Assembly: GCF_002024165.1 (NCBI RefSeq)
Contig: NZ_MWQN01000001.1
Location: 2,737,365 to 2,769,364, forward strand
Source: Embleya scabrispora
GTDB taxonomy: Bacteria > Actinomycetota > Actinomycetes > Streptomycetales > Streptomycetaceae
DNA: 32,000 nt
Reading direction: 5' to 3'
Positions 7,170 to 27,784 of the stretch are shown here, piece by piece. The notes beneath the pieces were generated by a model. It did no database searches and had not been told where the DNA came from. It worked only from the letters and a program-made list of their open reading frames with translations. The stretch's first letter is position 1; each line of letters begins with the position of its first letter. Both the position numbers and the translations under genes were made by a program.

Positions 7170-7532
7170 ATGACCGAACCGGATCCGGGGGACATATCGC
7201 CGCTCGTGCGGGAGATCGGCCGGCTGCTCGCGGGCGAGGGCGACCCGCCGGCGCTGCTGAGCGCGCTGCTCGCGGCCCGGCTGTACTGCGAACGACCCGA
7301 GCGGGTCGGCTTCGCGGCGATCGGCCCGCCGGGTGGCGGGGTGGTCCCGGTGTTCACGTCGGAGGAGCAGTTGGCGCTGTTCGTCCGGGGCGGGTGCGAC
7401 TGGTTCGCCACCGAAGGCGCCGACCTGCTGCGGCTGTTGCCGCCCGGCTACGACATCGCCGTCGACCTGGCCGGCCCGCGACCGGTGCGGCTGCGGGCGA
7501 GTCTGTGGAACGCGGAGGCGGCGGATGGGTGA
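7170..7532 (+). CDS. SseB / SAV_915-like family protein (small cytoplasmic accessory protein)
   Basis: LLSALLAARLYCERPERVGFAAIGPPGGGVVPVFTSEEQLALF...DIAVDLAGPRPVRL matches the pattern of actinomycete SseB-like proteins. Its stop overlaps the next ATG (ATGGGTGA). Confidence 0.6.
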   Translation: MTEPDPGDISPLVREIGRLLAGEGDPPALLSALLAARLYCERPERVGFAAIGPPGGGVVPVFTSEEQLALFVRGGCDWFATEGADLLRLLPPGYDIAVDLAGPRPVRLRASLWNAEAADG

Positions 7533-7875
7533 CGACGGGTTCAGGGTCGACAGCGCCTTCGTGCGCGGGGCCGGTACGGAGCTGATCGAAGCGCTGACGG
7601 TGGCGCGGGAAATCGCCCAGAAGCAACAGCCGTTGCAGAAGCAGCTGGAAGCGCTGCAGAAGTACTACTCGTCACCGCTCCAGGCCGGCGAGATCGTGCT
7701 CGAAGCCGGCAAGGCGATGGCCGCGCTGGTCAACCTCGGCGAGAACATCGCGATCGCGCTGGAGATGGCCGCGCAGCAGTACGAAGCGGCCGAACGCGAC
7801 GCCAGGGCCCGGTTCTTCACGCCCGGCGGTGCGGCCTCGATCCACGCGGGCGACGACATGGGCACCACGAACTGA
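7525..7875 (+). CDS. Small (116 aa) all-helical protein, a candidate WXG100-like partner or targeting factor for the downstream toxin
   Basis: The ATG at 7525 overlaps the upstream stop. The sequence has heptad-like, helix-rich stretches (IEALTVAREIAQKQQPLQKQLEALQKYY ... ALVNLGENIAIALEMAAQQYEAAERDARARF). No canonical WxG motif is present. It ends 13 nt before the toxin start. Confidence 0.55.
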   Translation: MGDDGFRVDSAFVRGAGTELIEALTVAREIAQKQQPLQKQLEALQKYYSSPLQAGEIVLEAGKAMAALVNLGENIAIALEMAAQQYEAAERDARARFFTPGGAASIHAGDDMGTTN

Positions 7876-7888
7876 CGGAGGCCGCCCG

Positions 7889-8290
7889 GTGTTGACATCC
7901 GGCGAACCACTCACCCCCGACTCGCAGCCTCGCGGCCTGATACCGGGCGACTGGGAGGTGTTGCAGGCGGTCGCCGACATGCTGACCCGGTTCTCGGTGC
8001 AGGCGTTGGAGGCCAAGGGACGGCTCGGCAAGATCGAGGGCAAGGACCTCTGGCAGGGCGACGCGGCGGAGGGTTTTCGCAAGGACCTCGGGATCGTCAC
8101 CGAGATCCTGGGCCTGCACGGCAAGGAATACCCGAGCGTCGCCGCGAAGTTGCGCGAGTTCGCCGAGGTGTTGCGGTTCGCCCAGGGCGAGTGCGCGAAC
8201 GAGATCATCCCGAAGGCGAAGCAGGCGTTCTGGCTGATCGAGGCGCAGGCGCGCGAGCAGGAGTCGTACGACCTGGCCAAGCGCGATCAG
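7889..8290 (+). other. N-terminal helical WXG-like secretion domain of the Rhs toxin
   Basis: A WxG motif (LWQGD, W at 8051-8053) is embedded in long predicted helices, followed by FAEVLRFAQGECANEIIPKAKQAFWLIEAQAREQE. The domain boundary is approximate. Confidence 0.5.
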
Positions 8291-11200
8291 GATGTGCAGA
8301 AGGCCAACGGCGTCGGCAAGGAGTGCCTGCCCTCGTTGCCGCACAAGCCCGAGGGCCACCCGGGCGCGGACATGTTGCGCGAGGCGCAGGAGCAGTTGAA
8401 GCGGGTGCGCGAGCGGGTGGAAAGGGCCGACGCGCACGCGCTGTTGGAACTGCGCAAGTCCCGTGGCGTTCTCGACCTCGACCCGGACATATGGAAGACG
8501 CTCCGCCAGGCCGGGATCGATTTCGCCAAGGGCGCCGGCAGTGGAGTCTTCGAGCTCGCGAGCTTCGCGTGGACGATCGACCCGGCTCGGACCTTCGTCG
8601 ACCCGATCGCGTACGCCACCGATCTCAAGGGCATCGCGGGCGGCATGCTCGGCATCGCCCGGGACCCGGTGGGGTTCGCCCAGGACACGGTCGTCTCCTC
8701 GTGGGAGGACTTCAAGAAGAACCCGGCCCGCTGGCTCGGCCACGTGGCGCCCGACCTGGCCCTGACGCTGGCGACGCGCGGCGGCAACAAGGCGCTGACG
8801 CCCGCCGAGCAGGTCGAGAAGAACATCGCCAAGCGGGACAACCCGCGCTGCCGGGCCGCGGAGGCGTGCACACGCGAGGGCGAGCCGATCGACGTGGTCA
8901 CCGGCGAGATGGTGCTGCCGCAGACCGACGTGACGCTGCCGGGCGCGCTGCCGTTGGTGCTGGAGCGGCACCACCGGACGGCGTTCGGCGGGGGCCGGTT
9001 CTTCGGCGAGCGGTGGGCGTCGACGTTCGACCAGTGCCTGCGTCTGGGCGCGGACCGGGTCACGTTCACGGCCGCCGACGGGATGACGCTGCGCTACCCG
9101 GTGCCGAGGCCGGGCGAGCCGGTGCTGCCGATGGGCGGATATCGGTGGCCCCTGGCGTGGGACGGCGCCGGGAGCTTCACGGTCACCGACCCGCGGCGGG
9201 GGTGGACGTGGTCCTTCGCGGCCCTGCCGGGTGCGGCCTCGCGGCGAATACCGGTGCGAGCGCTGACGGATCGCAACGCCAACCGCGTCGAGTACGCCTA
9301 CGACGCGGAGGGCGTGCCGCGCGAGGTCACCCACTCGGGCGGCTACCGGGTGGCGGTCGACTCGGCGGCGAGCCTGGTCACGGGCCTGCGCCTCCTCGAC
9401 ACGGACCCCGTCACCCACGCGAGCACGTACGACCCGGCGGCCTCCGTCGACCTCGTCACCTTCACCCACGACGACGCCGGCAACCTCACCGAAGTCGTCA
9501 ACTCCTCCGGCCGCCCCCTGCGCTTCACCTACGACACCGACCACCGCATGACGTCCTGGACCGACCGCAACGGCACCTGGTACCAGTACGAGTACGACGA
9601 GGCGGGCCGCTGCGTACGCGGCTCCGGCATCGACGGCATCCTGGACAACACCTTCGCCTACGACGAGGCATCCCGGACCACCAGGATGACCGACGCGTTG
9701 GGCGCCGTCCGAACCTACGAATACAACGACTGGTCCCAGGTCATCCGCGAAACCGACCCGGCAGGCGGCACCCGCCACACCGAATGGGACTCCTACAACC
9801 GCCGAGTCGCAATCACCGACGAACTCGGCCACACCACGAGGTACACCTACGACGCGGCCGGCAACACCACCGGCGTAATCCTCCCCAACGGCACCTTCAC
9901 AGTCGCCGACCACGACCCCACCCTGTGCCGCCCGACCAGAATCACCGGCTTGGACGGCGGAGTCCGCAGCCACACCTACGACACCCGCGCCAACCTCCTC
10001 ACCACCACCGACGAACTCGGCGCCATCACATCCCACACCTACAACGAGGCCGGCCACCTCACAACCATCACCAACGCTTTGGGCCACACCACAACGGTCA
10101 CCCCCAACCCGGCCGGCCTCCCGATCGCGGTAACCGACCCACTCGGCGCCACCACGAAGCTCACCCGCAACGCCTTCGGCCGCCCCACCACGCTGACCGA
10201 CCCCATGGGCCACACCACCAAAACAACCTGGACGGTGGAAGGCCAACCAGCACGGCGCGAACGCCCAGACGGCACGATCGAATTTTGGACCTGGGACGGC
10301 GAGGGCAACCTCCGACACCACGTCAACCCAGCAGGCTTCACCACGTCCTACGAGTCGACGCACTTCGACTTGCCGGCGGCCCGAACCGGACCCGACGGCG
10401 CAAGGTTGGAATTCACCTACGACGCCGAACTCCGCCTCACCGAAGTCACCAACCCACAGGGTCGCACCTGGCGCTACGCCTACGACTCGGTAGGCCGCCT
10501 CGCCGCCGAGACGGACTTCAACGGTCGAGAATTGACCTACCATTACGATGCAGCCGGCCGGTTGATCCGACACAGGAACGGCGCGGGAGAGATCATCGCG
10601 TACACCCGCGACGCCACCGGCTGGGTCACTTCGCAGCGCCACGACGCAACCCAGTATGAAACGATTTACCACTTCGACGCCGCCGGCCGCCTGATCCGGG
10701 CTATCGCTCCGGAAGCGGATCTGATCCTCACGTATGACGCCCTTGGTCGTATCACGGCCGAGACTACCAACGGCCGTACGTTGTCCAACGCGTACGATGC
10801 GGCGGGAAACCGTATTCGCCGGACAACCCCCGCCGGCCACGTCACCGAATGGACCTACGATCCTTCGGGCCGCCCGACGGCCTTACATATTGCTGGAAAT
10901 AGGCTCGAATTTACCTTCGATCCCGCCGGGCGCGAAACAATCCGTCGTTTCGGAGACCGGGTAACCTTCGCTCAAGAGTGGAACGAGACTCATCACCTCA
11001 TCTCCCGGACAACCTGCGTCGGAGATCCGGCCGGCAGGATCGCTGCTTCCTTGGACCCGGACCTCGGCGTCATCGAACGTTCTCGTCAGAATTACACCTT
11101 CCGGGCCGACGGCTTCGTCACGTCGATCGACGAACCGAACATCGGCCTCAAGACGTATGACCTGAACGAGGTGGGCCGCGTCACCGCCGTTCGCGCGCAT

Positions 11201-12322
11201 GGTTGGACGGAACGCTATGCGTACGACCGGGCCGGAAATCAACTTCATGCCGACTGGCCCGAATCCGAAAGCGCCGGAGGCGGGCGGGAAGTCGTCGGAA
11301 CCCTGATCCGTCGCGCCGGCCGTATCCGCTATAAATATGACGAACAAGGGCGCATAATCCAACGGACACAAAAGACCCTGTCCGGAAAATCCAAGTCCTG
11401 GATCTACGCCTGGGGTCCGGAGGATCGACTGACGAGCGTCGTCACGCCGGACGGCATCACCTGGCAATACATCTATGATGCGCTGGCCCGCCGGATAGCC
11501 AAGCAACAATTGACGCCCAGCGGCACCGTTGCGACTGAAGTGCTCTTTTCCTGGGACAACTCATTCTTGGCAGAGCAGGATACGCCGGAGGACGCAACGA
11601 CCACCTGGGAGTACGAATCCGGGGATAATCACCGTCCACTCCTGCAGGTCGACACTTCTGTAGGAGAGGAAGGAAAAAACGTGTGCTGCCTCGCAATCGT
11701 GTGTGCCCTCGACGGAACTCCCGTCGAACTCATCGACACCGAAGGGGCAGTTGCCTGGCATTCCCGGCATACGCTGTGGGGTGCGAGGATTGCGGCCACT
11801 CCCGGAGACTTGGACTGCCCACTCGGTTTTCCGGGACAGTACCGCGATTCGGAGTCTCAAATATTCCATAGTGTTTTTCGACAATATGATCCAATCCTTG
11901 CTCAATTTTGCAGCCCCGACCCTTTGGGTATCGAAGCGTCACCCAACCATCACGCCTACGTTATAAACCCTGTCGCGTGGTCCGATCCGCTCGGACTGGC
12001 CCCCCAGGGCGCCAAGGATCCCATAAGTCTCGGTCCGGGATTCACGGCAAGAATTGATGTATTTCCCATGGGGTTGGGGACCGACTTCGAAATCCATGTC
12101 TACAAGGGCGGCGTCGACTACGGTGTCTACGGCAGCACTGGGTGGTTCGCCAAGCATGGCCACGGAACGGACATCGAAGTCCCCGCCGCGATCGAAAATT
12201 CATTGAGGGGGATGGCTATCGAAATGCTCCGCAGGACCAATAGATTGGGTCCACGCGGAACCGAAGACATCTCGGGCGATAATTGGCATCGCCCGAGGCT
12301 GACGGGCGGAGGATGTAAATGA
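7889..12322 (+). CDS. Rhs/YD-repeat polymorphic toxin with a WXG-type (T7SS-style) N-terminal domain and an unassigned C-terminal toxin tip
   Basis: The GTG at 7889 has GGAGG 7 nt upstream. The N-terminus is LIPGDWEVLQAVADML...DLWQGDAAEGFRKDL. A DUF6531-like segment follows (CTREGEPIDVVTGEMVLPQTDVTLPG). There are many YD repeats (YTYDAAGNTTGV, YAYDSVGRLAAETDFNGRELTYHYDAAGRLI, and others). The Rhs core ends RQYDPILAQFCSPDPLGIEASPNHHAYVINPVAWSDPLGL. Confidence 0.95.
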   Translation: MLTSGEPLTPDSQPRGLIPGDWEVLQAVADMLTRFSVQALEAKGRLGKIEGKDLWQGDAAEGFRKDLGIVTEILGLHGKEYPSVAAKLREFAEVLRFAQGECANEIIPKAKQAFWLIEAQAREQESYDLAKRDQDVQKANGVGKECLPSLPHKPEGHPGADMLREAQEQLKRVRERVERADAHALLELRKSRGVLDLDPDIWKTLRQAGIDFAKGAGSGVFELASFAWTIDPARTFVDPIAYATDLKGIAGGMLGIARDPVGFAQDTVVSSWEDFKKNPARWLGHVAPDLALTLATRGGNKALTPAEQVEKNIAKRDNPRCRAAEACTREGEPIDVVTGEMVLPQTDVTLPGALPLVLERHHRTAFGGGRFFGERWASTFDQCLRLGADRVTFTAADGMTLRYPVPRPGEPVLPMGGYRWPLAWDGAGSFTVTDPRRGWTWSFAALPGAASRRIPVRALTDRNANRVEYAYDAEGVPREVTHSGGYRVAVDSAASLVTGLRLLDTDPVTHASTYDPAASVDLVTFTHDDAGNLTEVVNSSGRPLRFTYDTDHRMTSWTDRNGTWYQYEYDEAGRCVRGSGIDGILDNTFAYDEASRTTRMTDALGAVRTYEYNDWSQVIRETDPAGGTRHTEWDSYNRRVAITDELGHTTRYTYDAAGNTTGVILPNGTFTVADHDPTLCRPTRITGLDGGVRSHTYDTRANLLTTTDELGAITSHTYNEAGHLTTITNALGHTTTVTPNPAGLPIAVTDPLGATTKLTRNAFGRPTTLTDPMGHTTKTTWTVEGQPARRERPDGTIEFWTWDGEGNLRHHVNPAGFTTSYESTHFDLPAARTGPDGARLEFTYDAELRLTEVTNPQGRTWRYAYDSVGRLAAETDFNGRELTYHYDAAGRLIRHRNGAGEIIAYTRDATGWVTSQRHDATQYETIYHFDAAGRLIRAIAPEADLILTYDALGRITAETTNGRTLSNAYDAAGNRIRRTTPAGHVTEWTYDPSGRPTALHIAGNRLEFTFDPAGRETIRRFGDRVTFAQEWNETHHLISRTTCVGDPAGRIAASLDPDLGVIERSRQNYTFRADGFVTSIDEPNIGLKTYDLNEVGRVTAVRAHGWTERYAYDRAGNQLHADWPESESAGGGREVVGTLIRRAGRIRYKYDEQGRIIQRTQKTLSGKSKSWIYAWGPEDRLTSVVTPDGITWQYIYDALARRIAKQQLTPSGTVATEVLFSWDNSFLAEQDTPEDATTTWEYESGDNHRPLLQVDTSVGEEGKNVCCLAIVCALDGTPVELIDTEGAVAWHSRHTLWGARIAATPGDLDCPLGFPGQYRDSESQIFHSVFRQYDPILAQFCSPDPLGIEASPNHHAYVINPVAWSDPLGLAPQGAKDPISLGPGFTARIDVFPMGLGTDFEIHVYKGGVDYGVYGSTGWFAKHGHGTDIEVPAAIENSLRGMAIEMLRRTNRLGPRGTEDISGDNWHRPRLTGGGCK
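11999..12319 (+). other. 107-aa C-terminal toxin tip downstream of the DPLGL cleavage motif (family not recognised)
   Basis: The sequence after DPLGL (D at 11984) is APQGAKDPISLGPGFTARIDVFPMGLGTDFEIHVYKGGVDYGVYGSTGWFAKHGHGTDIEVPAAIENSLRGMAIEMLRRTNRLGPRGTEDISGDNWHRPRLTGGGCK. I could not match it to a named toxin fold by eye. Confidence 0.6.
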
Positions 12323-12783
12323 AATTCATCGAGATCGAATGGCGGGACGACATTCGAGGATTTTGGCTGGACCCTCGGTCATATCTTGGTGAATTGCCGA
12401 AAATGAGTTCGCAACTTCCCCAGGGAGCCCGAGGATTCGCCACCGATCCGGGGCACTACGATTTCAGCAGCCCCAGATGCGTGAAGGATTTGGGGTTCGA
12501 AACCCTTGTAACCCCATCGGACAGTCGACAGGGTCTCGAGATCCTTTTCTCGCCCAATCCATGGAAGCACGAGGAAGCGCTTCGTATCCGATATGACGGC
12601 GTCGAAAGCCTGTCTGTGGATTGGGAAAGTCAAGCCGCGGGCGGCGGCGTCAAAGATTCCCTGCTGCTCGATGAAATCCTGCCCGCCGATGCGGGGTGCC
12701 GGCACGAGATCGCCCTCACCGGCGCAACCATCCTGATCGCGTGCGCCGACCTGACCGCATCGTGGGAGCCTCACAACCCATAA
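12319..12783 (+). CDS. Candidate cognate immunity protein (154 aa, unassigned family)
   Basis: Its ATG overlaps the toxin stop (ATGA at 12319-12322). It shares the low-G+C composition of the toxin 3' end. It has no signal peptide or TM segment. A bipartite beta-rich pattern (RIRYDGVESLSVDW ... HEIALTGATILIACADLTASWE) is reminiscent of small Imm families, but this is not verified. Confidence 0.7.
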   Translation: MKFIEIEWRDDIRGFWLDPRSYLGELPKMSSQLPQGARGFATDPGHYDFSSPRCVKDLGFETLVTPSDSRQGLEILFSPNPWKHEEALRIRYDGVESLSVDWESQAAGGGVKDSLLLDEILPADAGCRHEIALTGATILIACADLTASWEPHNP

Positions 12784-14890: not shown

Positions 14891-15076
14891 CTTCGGTTGC
14901 GGGGTGCCGGTGCGGCGTTGATCCGGCCCGAGAGGCGGGCGGCACCCGGCGTTTCAGGGCTGCGAGACTCGAAGTCCGCGACGATACGGACGTATTGCTC
15001 GGCGAGAACCGGCCGGCAACGGAGCAGCGCACAAGGGGTTCGGTCGGGTTCCCGAAGAGCCTTCCCGAGCAGGTCG
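14891..15076 (+). repeat. Diverged copy (D) of the ~210-bp intergenic repeat family
   Basis: GGTTGCGGGGTGCCGGTGCGGCGTTGATCCGG...CCGGCGTTTCAGGGCT...GTATTGCTCGGCGAGAACCGGCCGGCAACGG...GGTCGGGTT...CCTTCCCGAGCAGGTCG is colinear with copies A and B at 16749-17170 and in the same orientation. Confidence 0.6.
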
Positions 15077-15180
15077 CGCGGGGAGTTTTCGAACCGGCGG
15101 CTCCATTCACATGGAAACAACCCGAACAAGTGACCGAGGGGGCTAGGGTTTGACGACCATCATCTCCGAGGAGGTAGGAA

Positions 15181-15531
15181 GTGTTTAGAGAACTAATCGT
15201 CCCATCGGATGATGATTTCCTTACCCACCTGGGCGTTACTCTGGAATCCTTGGAGCCCCACGGCACTCGGCAATTGATGTGGGAGCCATCGTCCGGCGCC
15301 AGTATCGCATTCTCCTTCTATATCCCGGGGCGCTCGGTTCGTCTGATCTGGCGTGAACAGGGGAGAGTCGTCGCCGATGTGTTTCGGGAGGGAGCCACGC
15401 AGATCTCACTGAAATCCGACAAACAGGAAGCCCATATGTGGATTCAATTTTTCATGGATTCACTAAACGGGGAACTGAAGGTTTGGCTCTACCCGAAGAT
15501 TCGACTACAGGATCGGATATTACTGACCTGA
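15181..15531 (+). CDS. Hypothetical small protein (116 aa), first gene of the low-G+C cassette
   Basis: A GTG start sits 6 nt after a strong GAGGAGG. The region is visibly A/T-richer than its flanks. There is an in-frame TTA codon at 15520-15522. No family was recognised. Confidence 0.6.
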   Translation: MFRELIVPSDDDFLTHLGVTLESLEPHGTRQLMWEPSSGASIAFSFYIPGRSVRLIWREQGRVVADVFREGATQISLKSDKQEAHMWIQFFMDSLNGELKVWLYPKIRLQDRILLT

Positions 15532-15605
15532 AGAAAACTTTCGCGTCACAGGTCATTCCGTCGACGTTTTTCGATCGAGATCTTTTAATCAGAGAGGTTT
15601 CCGGG

Positions 15606-16067
15606 ATGAGCGCGATCGTTGAGTTGTGGAAAAGACAGTCTCTTCCAATTTATGACGGCCTTTACTATGCAAATGGTCGATCATACGATCTGGCTCAAGA
15701 CCCGTCTTCGCCGAGTGGAGTCACGATGGGGCAGGCTTTCGACCTCGATTCCCTACTCCGGACTGCACCGGATCGGGTCACGAGCATCGATGTGACCAGA
15801 GTGGAGCAGATCAGCGAAGCGGAAGGCTATCTGTGCTGCGGCGAAGGTTCTTATGGTTCAGAAGGATTCTTCGCCAAAACCGACAGCGCCAAGCAACTGC
15901 TGTGGGTTGTGTATCTGGAAAACTCCAACCCCTTTCACGAAATCGAGATTCGGGAAGGCATGGCAATTTTCCGATCCACCTCCGGTACATGTATCACTGC
16001 CCCAATATATCTCTTAGGTTCGGGGCATGTTGGTCCCCGCCTCGATCCGAACCATCCACATGCCTGA
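15606..16067 (+). CDS. Hypothetical protein (153 aa), low-G+C cassette
   Basis: The ATG at 15606 (MSAIVELWKRQ...) contains GYLCCGEGSYGSEGFFAKTD and WVVYLENSNPFHEIEIREG. There is an in-frame TTA at 16014-16016. The start could lie further upstream in the same frame. Confidence 0.5.
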   Translation: MSAIVELWKRQSLPIYDGLYYANGRSYDLAQDPSSPSGVTMGQAFDLDSLLRTAPDRVTSIDVTRVEQISEAEGYLCCGEGSYGSEGFFAKTDSAKQLLWVVYLENSNPFHEIEIREGMAIFRSTSGTCITAPIYLLGSGHVGPRLDPNHPHA

Positions 16068-16077
16068 AAACCCGGGG

Positions 16078-16596
16078 ATGATCACAATGGATCCCTCGAA
16101 TGCTCACATATCTGCCCTGGAACCACATGGCAGTCGTGGCTATGGGGACACGCCGCTGGGGAGCAAGAGAGATCGGTTGATCGGGGCCTTCGTGGATCTT
16201 GTTGCAGGCCACGATGATTTGACCTATGCGATCGAAGTCGGACGGCAGAGCAGGCGGTGGGATGCTCTCGACACCTACGCCGCTCGGATGGCGTCGATCG
16301 CCGTTCGGGAACGTGACTCCGACATGCTTCGGCGAGGGCTGGTCGCGGCACTGATCGCCATGAAATCGACCGACGATGAACGTGAGGCCCTCCCGACCCT
16401 GAGTCTCCTCTACCGGGCGTGGGAAATTCTGGACGATCGGGGCTTGTGTTTTCGGGCGCCGCGCGATCTGCAAGTCCGAGAAGAGGATGATCCTTTCGTC
16501 GCCTTCGCTCGGCGCTCCCCCGATGACCGGGGAATCCGAGCAATGGGCTACCGCGAAGGGAGCGACTCCGAAGGGTTTCGATTCCTTGATCAATGA
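16078..16596 (+). CDS. Hypothetical protein (172 aa), low-G+C cassette
   Basis: Start is the ATG at 16078, or the ATG at 16060, which overlaps the previous stop. The sequence is helical and non-repetitive (DRLIGAFVDLVAGHDDLTYAIEVGRQSRRWDALDTYAARMASIAVRERDSDMLRRGLVAALIAM...). No family was recognised. Confidence 0.5.
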   Translation: MITMDPSNAHISALEPHGSRGYGDTPLGSKRDRLIGAFVDLVAGHDDLTYAIEVGRQSRRWDALDTYAARMASIAVRERDSDMLRRGLVAALIAMKSTDDEREALPTLSLLYRAWEILDDRGLCFRAPRDLQVREEDDPFVAFARRSPDDRGIRAMGYREGSDSEGFRFLDQ

Positions 16597-16748: not shown

Positions 16749-17170
16749 GTTTCCGGCGCGTGGTGCCGTTGCGTCTCGGGTTGCGGGGGGCCGGTGCGGG
16801 GTTGGTCCGAGTCGGTGATGGGCCGCCGCCGGCGTTCGGGGCTCCGAGGCTCCGGGCTCCCGACGGGACGAGCGTCTTGCTCGGCGAAAACCGGCTGGCG
16901 ACGGTGGGCGGAGAGGCGGTCGGGTCGAGTTCGCCGGCCGGCCTTTCCGAGTGGGTCGGCTGTTTCCGGCTCGCGTTGCTCTGTGAGTCTCGCGGGTGCC
17001 TGATGCGGGGCCGGTCCGAGTCGATGGTGGGCCGCCGCCGGCGTTCGGGGCTCCAAGACTCCGGGCTCCCGACGAAGCAGGTGTGTTGCTCGGCGAAAAC
17101 CGGCTGGCAGCGGCGGGGTGGGAGGTGGTGGGGTCGAGTTCGCCGGGGGGCTTTCCGAGTGGGCTGGGGC
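16749..17170 (+). repeat. Two tandem copies (A 16749-16961, B 16962-17170) of a ~210-bp G+C-rich intergenic repeat
   Basis: Both units begin GTTTCCGGC. Both contain GGTCCGAGTCG(G/A)TG(A/G)TGGGCCGCCGCCGGCGTTCGGGGCTCC...CTCCGGGCTCCCGACG...TTGCTCGGCGAAAACCGGCTGGC...GGGTCGAGTTCGCCGG...CTTTCCGAGTGGG. A third unit starts (GTTTGGGG at 17171) but does not continue. Confidence 0.85.
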
Positions 17171-17499
17171 GTTTGGGGAGGGGTTGGGATTCGGGACCGG
17201 ATCTCGGCGGTGGTTGTGGGCTTCGAACTTGGGTGACCTGTGGTTTTGGGTGGGCGGGGTGGGGAGTTGGGCGTCGAGGGCCGGTTTCGAGTGCTTCGGG
17301 CACTGCGGCCGCTCGGAGGCCGTGGAGGGGACCGCAAGTGCCCAGTGGGGGCGGAAACCGGATCTCGAGGCGCCTCAAACGCGCCGATTTTGGGCTGACC
17401 TGCGGTTTTCTCTCACACCGAGGCCACGGCAGCCCACGCCGTCCGGTTTCGTGAACTCTCGCCCCTCACGCACGCTGACCGCACTTCAAAATGCCCTGC

Positions 17500-17706
17500 C
17501 CGGCCCACTCGGGAAGGCTCTCCGGCGGGCCCGACCGCACCGCCCTCCCTGCCCGCCGCTGCCGGCCGGTTTTCGCCGGGCAAGACGCCCGTCTCGTCGG
17601 GAGTTTGGAGTCTTGGAGCCCCGAACGCCGGCGGCGGCCCATCACCGACTCGGATCAGCCTCGCACCGGCCACCCGCAACCCAAGACGCTGCGCCCGCCG
17701 GAAAAG
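17500..17706 (-). repeat. Inverted copy (C) of the same ~210-bp repeat
   Basis: The reverse complement of 17500-17706 reads CTTTTCCGGCGGG...GGGTTGCGGGTGGCCGGTGCGAGGCTGATCCGAGTCGGTGATGGGCCGCCGCCGGCGTTCGGGGCTCCAAGACTCC...GTCTTGCCCGGCGAAAACCGGCCGGCAGCGG...CCTTCCCGAGTGGGCCGG. This is colinear with copies A and B. Confidence 0.85.
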
Positions 17707-17846: not shown

Positions 17847-18914
17847 ATGACGGCGAAACCCGGCAATCCGGCGCTTGTTCGCGCCCGATACGCGCATGGG
17901 TGGATTGCGCAGCGGCATCTCTCGGCCGCCTTTCGGGAGTGTGCGGCGGGGTTGGGGCTGCGGTTGGACGTGAGTGCGCGGCAGGTTCGACGCTGGGAGT
18001 CGGCGAATCCGCCTTGGCCGACGCCCGATTACGTACGGGTGCTGGAGAGTATGTTCGGCGTGCCGCTGGATCGGCTGGGGTTCGTCCGCCCGGCGCACCT
18101 GGTCGATGTGGATCCGGACGGCTACGACGAAGGTCGGGCCTTTCATGAACTCCGAGGTGGCGAACAACCTGGCTGGTGGCGCTCCGAGTCCGACGAGATC
18201 GCGGCGAACGCCCACTATGCGCGACTGGTGGAGGCAGAGCAGTCCGCGGTGGCAGTGCGGTCGTATCTACCCACCCTGCTGCCTGGGCTGTTGCAAACCT
18301 TCGAATACGCCTTCGCCGTGATCAGGGCCAGTTCGCCGACCCTGACACAGGACGACGTGTTGCGCCGTACGAAGCGCCGCGTGGAACGACTCGGGTACGT
18401 CGGCAAGTGCTCGCCTGTGGGACGCTCCTTGTGGTTCATCGTCCACGATTCGGCGCTGCGCAATCCGGTCGGTGGATGGCATGCGCTCGCCGATCAACTC
18501 GGCCACATACTGGTCGTCCTTTCGCAGCGACCCGATGTAAGTCTCCAGGTGCTTCCCGATGATGTGGGCGCACATCCGGGGCTCAACTCCGGGCCATTCA
18601 CCTGGTATGACTTCGGGCGCGAACGTGTCGTCTATTTGGAAGATCTCACCGGCCGCTCTTGGACGTCACGTCCAACCTGTCTAGCGACCTACTCCCTGGC
18701 CTACGATCACCTGCAAGCGGCTGCCCTGACGGTGGACGAGTCCATCGAACTCATCGCGAAGAGGGCCCGGGAAGCGGAGATGAAGGCGTGGACCACAGGG
18801 ACAGGCCGGCTCGGTGGAGGGTCAGCAGCCACAGCGGACACGAAGACTGCGTCGCCGTCGCCCACTTCGGACACATCGGAGTCCGAGATTCCAAGGTCGC
18901 CGACGGACCGATAG
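17847..18914 (+). CDS. Helix-turn-helix (XRE-type) regulator with a DUF5753-like C-terminal domain (WhiJ/Scr1-type paralogue family)
   Basis: The ATG at 17847 is followed by an N-terminal HTH-like segment (LDVSARQVRRWESANPPWPTPDYVRVLESMFGVPLDRLGF). The central and C-terminal region (YARLVEAEQSAVAVRSYLPTLLPGLLQTFEYA...SLWFIVHDSALRNPVGG...LQVLP...GPFTWYDF) is typical of DUF5753 partners of DUF397 genes. The first 243 codons of the track ORF cover repeats and are rejected. Confidence 0.8.
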   Translation: MTAKPGNPALVRARYAHGWIAQRHLSAAFRECAAGLGLRLDVSARQVRRWESANPPWPTPDYVRVLESMFGVPLDRLGFVRPAHLVDVDPDGYDEGRAFHELRGGEQPGWWRSESDEIAANAHYARLVEAEQSAVAVRSYLPTLLPGLLQTFEYAFAVIRASSPTLTQDDVLRRTKRRVERLGYVGKCSPVGRSLWFIVHDSALRNPVGGWHALADQLGHILVVLSQRPDVSLQVLPDDVGAHPGLNSGPFTWYDFGRERVVYLEDLTGRSWTSRPTCLATYSLAYDHLQAAALTVDESIELIAKRAREAEMKAWTTGTGRLGGGSAATADTKTASPSPTSDTSESEIPRSPTDR

Positions 18915-18970
18915 TCACCCTGTCCCCGGCCGCGTGGCGTGCGCTCCTCTACGGAGTCCGTCCGCGCTGA
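18788..18970 (+). CDS. DUF397 domain-containing protein
   Basis: ARWRVSSHSGHEDCVAVAHFGHIGVRDSKVADGPIVTLSPAAWRALLYGV matches the DUF397 hallmark W-R-K-S-S-x-S...C-V-E-V-A...V-R-D-S-K...F/L...W..F. The GTG at 18788 has GGAG upstream. The gene overlaps the XRE gene tail out of frame. Confidence 0.8.
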   Translation: MDHRDRPARWRVSSHSGHEDCVAVAHFGHIGVRDSKVADGPIVTLSPAAWRALLYGVRPR

Positions 18971-25606: not shown

Positions 25607-27058
25607 TCAATCGACCACCGGCGGAGCCGCGGTGCGGTCGCCCACCCACGTCTCCTCCTCCTCGCGCAGGTAGTCGGCGCGCTGCCGCCGGTTGCGCTGA
25701 TCGCGCTCCCCGCCGCCCGCGCCCATCCCGCCGCCGCCGCGCATCCCGCCGCGACCGGCGCCGGCCTGACCGCCCACCCCCGCGCCGGCCCGGCCGGCCA
25801 GACCGGTGCCGCCGGAGGAGAACTGGCCCGCCGCGCTCGCGGTACGCGGGGTGCCGCCCATCACGCCACCGCTCTGCCCGGTGAACCGGCGCCCACCCGC
25901 GCCCCCGGGCTTGCCGCCGGACGGGTGCTCGCCGCCACCGCCGCCGCCCGGACCGCGCCCGAAGGGCCGTCCGCCGGTGACCGGCTCGGTCGACGACCGG
26001 ACGTTGGGGTTGCGCCCGTTGCCGGGAAGCGGGTTCGAGGTCAACTGGGCCTTGCCACCCCCGGACTTGCCGCCCGGCGGGATGCCGCCCTTGCCGCCGC
26101 CCAACGCCGGCGGGAAGCCGCCGGGCAGACCACCGGGCGGATTCTGGAAGGGACCGCTGCCACCGGGACCGGGCAGACCGGGACCCGTGGGGCCGGGCGG
26201 CCCGTCCAACACCGGCGTGGGCCCGCTCTGGAACGGACCGGTGCCCTGGAGGTCGGTACCGGCCGGCGGCACGTAGCCACCGGGACCCCCGGACCCCGAG
26301 CCGCCCGGACCCGAGGCGTCGACGCCGGAGTGCACCACGCCGCCGTCCCCGTTGGGCCCGTGCCCGGGGATCAGCGTCCCGCCGTCACGACCCGTCGTGG
26401 CCCGCACCGTCGAGTTGTTGCCGACCCGCCGAGGGTCGCCGGTCGTGCCGCCGCCCCCCTTGTGCGTCACGTGCGGCAACGCGGGCAGCGGCGGGAATTC
26501 CACCGCCGGTGCCTTGGTCAGCGTCTCGGTGGTCACCGTGTAGGTGCTGCCCAGGCTCTCCATCCGCCGGATGGCCTCCTGGCGCGCCTTCTCCAACTCG
26601 GTCTGCGCCGAGGCGACCAGAGCCTTCTTGTCGGGGCTGTCGCCGGGTTGGCACATCAGCTTCTTGTCACCGTTGCTGTCCACGATGACCTTGGCGTTCG
26701 CCGGCACCTCCGGCATGGTCAGCAGCGCGAAGCTCAACTCGCTGCCCGCGTGGTCCATCGCGGTGCCGACCGTGCCCGAGTGCTCGGCGAACTTGCGCGT
26801 CGCGACCATGACCTTGCCGGCCCAGTCGCGGAAGCTGTCGGCCGACTTGCCCTTCCACTCCAGTCGGCTGATCCGCGTCTCCAACGCCGTCGTCAGCGTC
26901 TCCAACGTCTCCTTGGCATCGAGCAACGCCTTTCCCGACGCCGTCAGTTCGGCGGGTCGCGCGCCGTCGATCATCTTCTTCAGCGCTTCGTGCGAAAACT
27001 CGTCGAACTTGGTGGGACCGTCTCCCCACCCACCGCCACCGCCCGCATCCGCAACCAT
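25607..27058 (-). CDS. WXG-like helical N-terminal domain protein with a long Gly/Pro-rich disordered region and a charged C-terminal tail (candidate T7SS-type substrate)
   Basis: The N-terminal ~190 aa are helical with a WxG motif (RISRLEWKGKSADSFRDWAGKV). Then come about 260 aa of G/P-rich low complexity. The C-terminus is ERDQRNRRQRADYLREEEETWVGDRTAAPPVVD. ATG start. Confidence 0.7.
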   Translation of the reverse strand: MVADAGGGGGWGDGPTKFDEFSHEALKKMIDGARPAELTASGKALLDAKETLETLTTALETRISRLEWKGKSADSFRDWAGKVMVATRKFAEHSGTVGTAMDHAGSELSFALLTMPEVPANAKVIVDSNGDKKLMCQPGDSPDKKALVASAQTELEKARQEAIRRMESLGSTYTVTTETLTKAPAVEFPPLPALPHVTHKGGGGTTGDPRRVGNNSTVRATTGRDGGTLIPGHGPNGDGGVVHSGVDASGPGGSGSGGPGGYVPPAGTDLQGTGPFQSGPTPVLDGPPGPTGPGLPGPGGSGPFQNPPGGLPGGFPPALGGGKGGIPPGGKSGGGKAQLTSNPLPGNGRNPNVRSSTEPVTGGRPFGRGPGGGGGGEHPSGGKPGGAGGRRFTGQSGGVMGGTPRTASAAGQFSSGGTGLAGRAGAGVGGQAGAGRGGMRGGGGMGAGGGERDQRNRRQRADYLREEEETWVGDRTAAPPVVD

Positions 27059-27105
27059 CTCGTCACCCCGTCCCCGTAGTTCCCGTCACGTCGAATCGGC
27101 CCCGC

Positions 27106-27531
27106 TCAGGGGGACTTCGCCGGCGGCGCGGGAGCCGGCGCGTTGTTCGCGTAGTCCTGTTGCAGAGCCTTGTACTTGGCGGTGAACTCCGCCTCGTTGC
27201 CCTCGTACGTGCCCTGCACGTACTGGACGGTCATCTGCATCGCCTCGATCTGGCGCTTGAGCTGCGTCGACAGGTCGATCAGCTCGGAGCGCACGTCGAC
27301 GTAGGCCGACCACAGCCGGATCGCCTCGCCGAAGTTGCCCGAGGCGTCCAGCTCGACGCGGTTGTCCACCAGCTTGTGCGGTGCCGCGGTGGATGCGTCC
27401 AGGTCGTCCAGCGCGCGCTGCACGTCCTTTTGGAACTGCACCATCGATTCCAGTCCGACGGACAGCGCCTGCATGTCCGACGACGAGACCCCGACGGGTC
27501 CGCCGTCACCGGTGTCCGCTATGAGGACCAT
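27106..27531 (-). CDS. Small helical protein (141 aa), upstream partner of the WXG-like Gly/Pro-rich protein
   Basis: The ATG at 27531 is 9 nt after GGGGGA; the track start at 27540 is a GTG abutting the RBS. The sequence is helical (MQALSVGLESMVQFQKDVQRALDDLD ... IRLWSAYVDVRSELIDLSTQLKRQIEAMQMTVQYVQGTYEGNEAEFTAKYKALQQDY). A 47-bp gap separates it from the next gene. Confidence 0.6.
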   Translation of the reverse strand: MVLIADTGDGGPVGVSSSDMQALSVGLESMVQFQKDVQRALDDLDASTAAPHKLVDNRVELDASGNFGEAIRLWSAYVDVRSELIDLSTQLKRQIEAMQMTVQYVQGTYEGNEAEFTAKYKALQQDYANNAPAPAPPAKSP

Positions 27532-27784
27532 CTGCCACACTCCCCCGTGCGTGGAGCCGATACCTCACCCCGTCACCACGCAGCTAGTTACCAACGCACC
27601 GCGCGTGCCCCATCCGAGGCGGCGCATCGCGGCACACCCGTATCAGTGTCCTCAGACTACCCAGCCGATATGACCGATGGGTACGGGGTAACCCTCGCTT
27701 CGGACGGTGACCGGGTATCGATTCGGTGAACCACGAACGGGCGGAATACCCGACATATCCCGTCGCCGGGTCTCCCGATGCGAA

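Follow-up and report, generated by a model that had tools for sequence, protein, structure and literature searches.

The locus described here raises the question of how a giant Rhs toxin of a soil actinomycete might leave the cell that produces it, and what the two small proteins encoded directly upstream of it might contribute. It lies in the genome of Embleya scabrispora (RefSeq assembly GCF_002024165.1, contig NZ_MWQN01000001.1), within a stretch of 32,000 nucleotides (nt; positions 2,737,365–2,769,364 of the forward strand) that is called the window throughout and to which the coordinates of the E. scabrispora features refer. Four genes are concerned, namely g1, encoding an SseB-like protein, g2, encoding a small helical protein, the toxin gene g3, and g4, encoding a putative cognate immunity protein. 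The locus is a genuine four-gene polymorphic Rhs toxin operon of the antibacterial type. An initial annotation, made from the DNA letters alone, had regarded the toxin as a type VII-exported effector accompanied by two small targeting or chaperone proteins, and the computational analysis reported here supports that interpretation. It is proposed that the toxin leaves the cell through an ESX-type (type VIIa) secretion system whose genes would lie elsewhere in the E. scabrispora genome, with g2 and g1 as partners of the toxin, and a probability of about 0.65 is assigned to this proposal.

The strongest evidence comes from gene linkage, which ties both helpers to the constant trafficking part of the toxin. 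A total of 14 loci were long enough to be judged, including six from Embleya, two from Yinghuangia, one from Streptomyces sp. SID3343, and five from metagenome contigs. In all of them, a g1-type gene is followed by a g2-type gene and then by a gene encoding a protein with a T7SS_signal domain, whether or not that protein carries Rhs repeats. The co-conservation of the trio, which had been suggested earlier as a check on the type VII interpretation, holds across the whole set. The cargo is more varied than its helpers in the five metagenome loci, where four T7SS_signal proteins of ~370 amino acids (aa) without Rhs repeats and one Rhs protein of 1473 aa were found. Since the ~370-aa non-Rhs proteins are accompanied as well, the helper pair is not specific to Rhs toxins. 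In the judgeable metagenome loci, the open reading frame (ORF) after the g1-type gene matches the g2 profile, the most divergent locus having a small helical ORF with the motif YILAD at this place, and the third ORF encodes a T7SS_signal protein with E-values of 1e-15 to 1e-22. Two Yinghuangia species carry an SseB-like gene, a g2-type gene of ~40% identity, a DUF6531-Rhs toxin gene, and a small ORF at different chromosomal sites, with the same 8-nt and 4-nt gene overlaps as in E. scabrispora; in one of these loci, the T7SS_signal match falls just under the cut-off. Streptomyces sp. SID3343 carries the same gene set. Three genome loci were returned by a narrower locus scan with the g2 alignment, and eight further metagenome loci by a scan with the g1 profile.

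A related four-gene module was observed in four soil-metagenome loci (L012, 5590–8550; L013, 1956–4790; L014, 106–2943; L016, 7815–10610), in which an SseB-like gene, a YxxxE hairpin gene, and the gene of a ~370-aa non-Rhs T7SS_signal protein are followed by a larger ORF (283–522 aa). Three of the larger ORFs were scanned; that of L013 matches Pfam SseB, and those of L014 and L016 weakly match the g1-family profile or NF033532. An acyl-CoA dehydrogenase gene adjoins the module in two of the four loci.

The N-terminus of the toxin was initially described as WXG-type, and residues 8–189 match Pfam PF21725 (T7SS_signal) with 38.3 bits, above the cut-off of 27. The motif LWQGDAAEGF occupies residues 54–63, and its W55 and G57 are invariant in all ten homologues of the toxin N-terminus, which share 23–89% identity. 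When a profile of six N-termini was compared with the PDB, the WXG100 protein EsxA (3zbh) was the top match, aligned over the whole hairpin with the WxG in register, but with an E-value of 0.36. A kindred T7SS_signal protein of 368 aa matches TIGR03930 (WXG100_ESAT6) with an E-value of 2.7e-5. No Y-x-x-x-D/E motif occurs in the first 330 residues of the toxin. A PAAR domain was not matched on the toxin in Pfam or NCBIfam, and neither a signal peptide nor a transmembrane segment was found in residues 1–420 by a simple hydropathy scan (not SignalP), the highest 19-residue Kyte-Doolittle mean being 0.96. Delivery by a type VI or Sec pathway is therefore disfavoured, which agrees with the earlier view that the effector is neither PAAR- nor Sec-dependent. 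Toward the Rhs part of the toxin, residues 190–330 contain many invariant positions across three lineages and have no Pfam match at E <= 10. This region might serve as the docking site for g1. A homologue search with residues 1–330 returned no sequence at E <= 1e-5, a threshold that is too strict for a database of 5.8 billion sequences.

The small protein g2 may provide the second half of the export signal. Its AlphaFold model, built from ten sequences (predicted local distance difference test, pLDDT, 75), consists of a helix (residues 10–44), a turn, a second helix (51–97), and a tail that is disordered from residue 100. In a Foldseek comparison of this model with the PDB, ranks 1–20 and 22–24 are all taken by WXG100 proteins, among them B. 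anthracis EsxB, GBS1074, Geobacillus and S. aureus EsxA, and Thermomonospora EsxA/EsxB, with target-normalised template modelling (TM) scores of 0.65–0.87 (0.46 for the Thermomonospora entry). The profile of the g2 family gave eleven non-significant matches to PDB sequences, including EspB and PE25, and the EspB alignment spans the YxxxE region. The family is rare, with nine relatives among 1.84 billion representatives in an exhaustive profile search. Across 15 g2-type proteins (20–79% identity), Y86 is kept in 14 (the other has W), and position +4 is E or D in every one of them. The YxxxD/E motifs of PE25, EsxB, and EspB sit at a similar place, near the C-terminal end of helix 2. The WxG is thus found on the toxin chain and the YxxxE/D on the g2 chain, in a complementary split. 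Such a division of the two motifs between two chains has been described for PPE and PE (PMC13444075), and the toxin and g2 mirror the PE/PPE pairs in this respect; the YxxxE/D of g2 is a putative export signal. The idea that g2 is a small helical partner of the toxin gains support, by computation, from both the modelled WXG100-type hairpin and the conserved YxxxE/D that the toxin is without.

The tail of g2 (7819–7872) and those of its relatives are disordered, Pro-rich, and variable in length, and most keep a D-[ML/I] element (GDDMGTT, PIDMTQP, PFDMTKP). It might offer the secretion ATPase a second point of recognition.

The first protein of the operon, g1, scores 25.7 bits with Pfam SseB (PF07179; cut-off, 21) and is 100% identical to a 120-aa protein of E. 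scabrispora that NCBI names 'SseB family protein', so that its early designation as SseB-like is confirmed. With the NCBIfam model NF033532, 'type VII secretion system-associated protein', g1 scores 26.8 bits and remains under the cut-off of 85, and its relatives score 28–41 bits; all g1-type proteins cover most of the model, with E-values of 1e-6 to 1e-10. Judged by these scores, the g1 clade is a sister group of NF033532, related to its members but not among them. The AlphaFold model of g1 (pLDDT 78) is a small mixed α/β domain. No EspG match was obtained for g1 in Pfam or NCBIfam, and the 50 best Foldseek PDB matches listed do not include it. The protein is ~80% identical between Embleya strains that differ in the C-terminal toxin domain and the immunity gene, and g1 is therefore expected to serve the constant part of the toxin rather than the toxin domain. 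An immunity function was also considered for g1 and is ruled out by the same conservation across strains with different toxin domains.

In the proposed mechanism, the first ~190 residues of the toxin would fold as a WXG100-like hairpin with the invariant WxG, and g2 would supply a second hairpin without WxG, contributing its conserved YxxxE and disordered tail. By analogy with PE-PPE, EsxA-EsxB, LXG-Lap, and EatA-Tap, the two hairpins may bundle into a composite export signal, which would be read by the EccC ATPase. The globular g1, always encoded first, would most likely bind and stabilise the toxin-partner complex in the cytoplasm and stay behind, in a role akin to that of the EspG, EsaE, or DUF4176 (Ltc) chaperones, though it is unrelated to them. 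The Rhs core would then cleave after DPLGL and release the 107-aa toxin within the YD-repeat cage, to be delivered to a competitor, and g4 would neutralise the toxin in the producer.

Several findings weigh against this proposal. Pfam itself calls the T7SS_signal domain a putative signal. The g2 protein falls below every family threshold (12.9 vs. 27.3 bits for PF06013 WXG100, 12 vs. 23.5 bits for EspC), and its Foldseek E-values are weak (0.13–1.1), a two-helix hairpin being a common shape. The YxxxE is a short motif within an Ala/Glu-rich helix. For g1, the only clear PDB neighbour in the fold search is the uncharacterised TTHA0547 (2z0r), followed by weak matches to Tic22, a protein-import factor, and no direct link to chaperoning emerges. 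Genes of the EccB, EccC, EccD, or MycP type were found neither among the window ORFs scanned, as had been noted before for the Ecc core genes, nor among the ORFs scanned beside related loci. Streptomyces species are said to carry an ESX-type locus generally, from work on S. coelicolor and S. scabies. Finally, an Rhs cage measures ~86 x 65 Å, and the channel of the secretion ATPase is estimated at ~30 Å (PMC10327511); as the cage is far wider than the channel, export would need an unfolded or otherwise unusual state of the toxin.

With regard to g2, the score for TIGR03930 is likewise low (11.9 bits; cut-off, 44.85), the matches to WXG100, EspC, and TIGR03930 have E-values of 0.1–0.3, and WxG is absent from the turn. 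As its sequence scores are below threshold, the WxG is missing, and the likeness is one of fold only, g2 is better said to work like a PE, EsxB, Lap, or Tap partner than to be a member of the WXG100 family.

The lack of secretion genes in the window ORFs scanned and beside related loci, the provisional domain label of Pfam, and the dimensions of the cage would also suit a toxin that leaves the cell through lysis, vesicles, or another pathway, or that stays on the hyphal surface, its WXG-like N-terminus and g2 serving in assembly, oligomerisation, or attachment. Such an exit outside the type VII pathway is nevertheless considered distinctly unlikely. The WxG of the toxin and the YxxxE/D of the partner are distributed as in PE/PPE substrates, WXG100 proteins rank first for the g2 fold, and the toxin carries no signal peptide or transmembrane segment. 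Moreover, a location away from the secretion genes is normal for type VII toxins, whose satellite loci form hotspots in Listeria and occupy discrete locations in M. abscessus.

The role of g1 within a type VII-dependent module needs to be weighed separately. It is possible that g1 is an operon regulator, a co-secreted component, or a guard that keeps the toxin inactive until export, and the outcome of its fold search, the lack of a PDB relative found by sequence, and the SseB-type match in the larger ORF after the metagenome T7SS_signal gene, by which the family is not tied to one position, are all compatible with such roles. However, no DNA-binding domain was matched in g1, its gene is translationally coupled to g2, and it goes with the toxin's constant N-terminal part rather than with the toxin domain, while comparable globular helpers are chaperones in type VIIb systems (PMC12478183). 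A non-chaperone function of this kind is regarded as unlikely. The cytoplasmic chaperone or adaptor role thus remains the preferred one for g1, with a confidence below that of the type VII partner model as a whole.

Taken as a whole, the locus follows the same logic as known systems, while its cage cargo and its combination of helpers, a single YxxxE hairpin and a protein of the SseB family, differ from them and are new. An earlier survey, whose accessible text contains no mention of SseB, listed actinobacterial toxins combining WXG and RHS as predicted type VII cargo (Zhang et al., 2012; PMC3482391). The closest experimental case is the ESX-4-dependent mycobacterial toxin EatA, which was shown in June 2026 to bind two upstream helical Tap proteins (Benedict et al., PMC13444075). 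EatA-like loci are reported to be widespread across Actinomycetota (PMC13444075), and the main text of that study makes no mention of Rhs, Streptomyces, or SseB. The EatA-TapA1/TapA2-EatI locus of Mycobacterium abscessus resembles the Embleya operon in being an actinobacterial type VIIa case with a helical toxin N-terminus, small helical partners upstream, an immunity gene downstream, and a position remote from the secretion genes. In contrast, EatA, a glycoside hydrolase of 57 kDa, has two helical Tap partners and lacks an Rhs cage, and the Embleya locus combines one helical partner and a globular protein of the SseB family with an Rhs cage protein of 1477 aa. The initial annotation had held that, to its author's knowledge, a targeting or chaperone role of this kind was experimentally uncharacterised for actinomycete Rhs toxins. 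The literature searched covers neither actinomycete Rhs toxins nor SseB-like helpers, but the layout has been explored more than had been implied, with WXG-RHS toxins tabulated in 2012 (PMC3482391) and Tap partners demonstrated in 2026 (PMC13444075). A toxin of Amycolatopsis with an upstream 'targeting factor' was also noted in 2025 (PMC12691689).

Among the better-known pairs, PE-PPE and EsxA-EsxB likewise carry WxG on one of the two hairpins, with YxxxD/E located toward the end of helix 2 in its partner, so that the signal is composite, and PE25, EspB, and EsxA are among the best, non-significant, PDB sequence matches of the g2 and toxin N-terminus profiles. Compared with the PE-PPE-EspG system, however, no PE, PPE, or EspG threshold is reached, and the WxG-bearing partner is here the N-terminus of a giant toxin. 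In Bacillota, LXG toxins need helical Lap targeting factors, and some also need a globular, toxin-specific DUF4176 (Ltc) chaperone, which binds a middle region lying between signal domain and toxin (PMC12478183). The combination of helical targeting, a separate globular helper, and an immunity gene is shared with the LXG-Lap-DUF4176 system, which belongs to another phylum and secretion subtype (type VIIb), whereas the globular helper is an SseB-family protein in Embleya. None of the four proteins matches LXG, Lap, or DUF4176 in Pfam at E <= 1. LrhA, an Rhs protein of Listeria monocytogenes encoded next to essC8, is a predicted type VIIb cargo (PMC10327511). It resembles the Embleya toxin in its Rhs cage, its predicted type VII export, its small WXG100-like accessory genes, and its immunity gene, and both are known only from genome analysis. 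LrhA differs in belonging to type VIIb, in lying beside its ATPase gene, and in having three small accessory proteins, with no SseB-family gene described.

The architecture of the toxin downstream of its N-terminus is that of a polymorphic Rhs toxin. DUF6531, the YD repeats, and the DPLGIE...SDPLGL core, which had been read from the translation, were recovered as Pfam and NCBIfam domains at the matching residues. The Rhs core model TIGR03696 scores 62.7 bits (cut-off, 32.5), and the core sequence reads ...PDPLGIE...WSDPLGL, followed directly by APQG. From this motif, self-cleavage is predicted to occur at DPLGL. For the C-terminal toxin domain, no Pfam match was obtained at E <= 10, no meaningful PDB sequence match, and no plasmid match; for g4, no family match was obtained in Pfam (including at E <= 10) or NCBIfam, and no useful PDB sequence match. 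A likeness of an H...KH pattern to Ntox35, as listed in a table published in 2012, received no support from searches and is not claimed.

The C-terminal domain and the gene behind it form the variable part of the locus. The guanine-cytosine (GC) content falls from ~0.70 upstream to 0.59–0.64 over g4 and the last third of the toxin gene, and to 0.59–0.60 at the C-terminal domain, which is compatible with a recent exchange of the toxin and immunity cassette. The E. hyalina orthologue is identical in 106 of the 107 residues of the C-terminal domain, compared with 90% identity over the whole protein, which may point to a recent cassette transfer or to unusually strong constraint. A strain comparison was made at the enolase-adjacent locus among Embleya strains carrying the same first three genes. 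Between strains, the C-terminal domain and the downstream ORF change in step, with Barstar or unrelated small ORFs at the position of g4. A Barstar gene lies 3' of the toxin gene in three Embleya strains, one of the toxins having a sub-threshold Pfam ribonuclease match; Ntox43 with a 150-aa ORF is found at the toxin end in one strain, and two different unclassified toxin/immunity pairs also occur. Judged from the Barstar gene after the toxin, the C-terminal domain is probably of the ribonuclease type in some of the other Embleya strains. A variable C-terminal toxin swapped between strains together with its adjacent immunity gene is the signature of polymorphic toxins, and g4 is by its position the putative cognate immunity protein. 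A copy of g4 with 43% identity stands alone among insertion sequence elements on two Streptomyces plasmids, much like orphan immunity genes reported from other toxin loci, and no orphan Rhs core/toxin cassettes were found downstream of the operon.

In Embleya sp. NBC_00896 (L001, 10380–13703), the orthologous Rhs gene encodes 1107 aa and is thus ~370 residues shorter, and a Barstar gene still follows it. This gene may represent a deletion within the shell or a decayed copy.

The uncharacterised nature of both the C-terminal domain and g4, together with the repeats and low-GC ORFs downstream, which recall defence islands, could be taken to indicate an intracellular toxin-antitoxin or anti-phage module built on an Rhs scaffold instead of an exported weapon. 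This is highly improbable, given that the order of trafficking domain, cage, self-cleaving core, and swappable toxin with immunity gene is the layout of exported polymorphic toxins (PMC3482391), and that none of the eight proteins tested has a PADLOC match. The defence-system interpretation was rejected on the latter ground, and the locus is best understood as a polymorphic toxin operon whose product is a candidate for type VII export.

The arrangement of the four genes (Table 1), initially described as co-directional and tightly joined, is correct base for base in its coordinates, overlaps, and GGAGG. The TGA of g1 (7530–7532) lies inside ATGGGTGA, and the ATG of g2 begins at 7525, giving an 8-nt overlap. 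Between g2 and the toxin gene there is a gap of 13 bases (7876–7888) with the GGAGG in it, followed by the GTG at 7889, and an ATGA (12319–12322) is common to the toxin stop and the g4 start, giving a 4-nt overlap. Short gene overlaps are frequent in high-GC operons and have little meaning alone; here, the 8-nt and 4-nt overlaps recur in other genera together with the gene order. The third-position GC is high in all four ORFs, as for real genes of this 70%-GC genome. Three of the proteins have exact matches at NCBI, namely g2 (WP_078975860.1, 116 aa), the toxin (WP_078975861.1, 1477 aa, named 'DUF6531 domain-containing protein'), and g4 (WP_078975862.1, 154 aa). With g1 included, exact NCBI proteins exist for all four, so the start codons agree with an independent annotation. 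The operon diverges from a housekeeping cluster on the opposite strand, which encodes enolase, DivIC, DUF501, and Ppx. In simple scans, no + strand promoter or terminator site was found for the operon, which is not surprising in an actinomycete of high GC content.

Table 1. Positions of the genes, protein domains, and motifs of the Rhs toxin operon in the window.
Feature	Position	Strand	Description
g1	7170..7532	+	120-aa SseB-family α/β protein; first gene of the module; putative cytoplasmic chaperone/adaptor
g2	7525..7875	+	116-aa helical-hairpin partner; WXG100-like fold; without WxG; disordered tail
YxxxD/E-type motif of g2 (Y86-E-A-A-E90)	7780..7794	+	TAC GAA GCG GCC GAA; near the end of helix 2
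Ribosome-binding site GGAGG	7877..7881	+	Read from the sequence; 7 nt 5' of the toxin GTG
g3 (toxin)	7889..12322	+	1477-aa Rhs polymorphic toxin; GTG start; WP_078975861.1
T7SS_signal domain, toxin residues 8-189	7910..8455	+	WXG100-like helical; Pfam PF21725; W55-Q-G57 at 8051-8059
Middle region, toxin residues 190-330	8456..8878	+	Conserved among Rhs-type homologues; candidate g1 docking site
DUF6531, toxin residues 331-403	8879..9097	+	Pfam PF20148, 77.6 bits; taken for the N-terminal cage plug in the initial annotation
YD/RHS-repeat shell	9098..11773	+	RHS_repeat, 274.6 bits, 19 stretches; TIGR01643, 268.7 bits
Rhs-associated core, toxin residues 1296-1370	11774..11998	+	TIGR03696; ends in DPLGL, the expected self-cleavage site
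C-terminal toxin domain, residues 1371-1477	11999..12319	+	107 aa; activity unassigned
g4	12319..12783	+	154-aa putative cognate immunity protein; WP_078975862.1

Several further features were observed in the rest of the window. A second candidate pair of type VII substrates is encoded on the - strand (25607–27540) and consists of a 144-aa helical protein (27106–27540) and, directly downstream, a 483-aa protein (25607–27058). At its N-terminus (LEWKGKSADSF), the latter shows sub-threshold likeness to WXG100, T7SS_signal, and PPE; a long body rich in Gly and Pro follows, and the C-terminus is charged (ADYLREEEETW). No SseB-like gene stands alongside the pair. Its presence hints that such a secretion system has other clients. 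Paralogy of this pair with g2 and the toxin N-terminus was considered and rejected, the BLASTP E-values being 0.1–0.3.

Downstream of the operon, a repeat of ~70–160 nt occurs in four copies in both orientations with 80–87% identity (14953–15089, 16771–16945, 16992–17154, and 17488–17689). The copies bracket a low-GC block (15.0–16.0 kb, GC 0.54) that holds three unclassified ORFs, and the bracketed block may be a small mobile or recombination element. No known RNA families of Rfam were found in the window, including the repeats. The three low-GC ORFs (15181–16596, + strand) encode 116, 153, and 189 aa and have no Pfam or PADLOC match. A 44%-identical copy of the 153-aa ORF lies on a replicon of Streptomyces sp. 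BHT-5-2, just 3' of an ORF that ends in FTWDGATLCE and resembles an Rhs fragment, and the three ORFs may be orphan immunity genes. In addition, a regulator with helix-turn-helix (HTH) and DUF5753 domains and a DUF397 protein are encoded at 17850–18970 on the + strand. Other Embleya loci have this HTH-DUF5753/DUF397 pair as well, a few genes 3' of the toxin gene, and one Yinghuangia locus has it immediately 5' of the operon.

The killing of other bacteria by way of type VII secretion has been studied extensively in Bacillota; the first experimental demonstration in Actinomycetota dates from 2026 and concerns mycobacteria. Among soil bacteria, those resembling streptomycetes are major competitors, and their protein toxins have been little studied. 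The E. scabrispora locus offers a compact model in this respect, as it unites a YxxxE helical partner, a globular helper, a cage toxin seemingly too big for its channel, and an unclassified toxin/immunity pair. Its layout would not surprise a specialist, and concrete leads are offered by the conservation of the three-part module and by the difficulty that the size of an Rhs cargo poses. A broader and more tentative suggestion, which is held to be somewhat doubtful at present, is that the SseB-family proteins of this clade act in actinobacterial type VII secretion as chaperones or adaptors specific to their substrates, a class so far unrecognised; each would join a lone YxxxE hairpin and the cargo's WxG domain in a three-part export module able to carry varied cargoes, including an Rhs cage. 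If this is true, a type VIIa system would handle a ~160-kDa β-cage protein, presumably held unfolded by a helper. If g1 proves to be a chaperone, the large 'SseB family' annotation would gain a function, and the module bears on how, and in which folding state, large cargo crosses a type VII secretion system.

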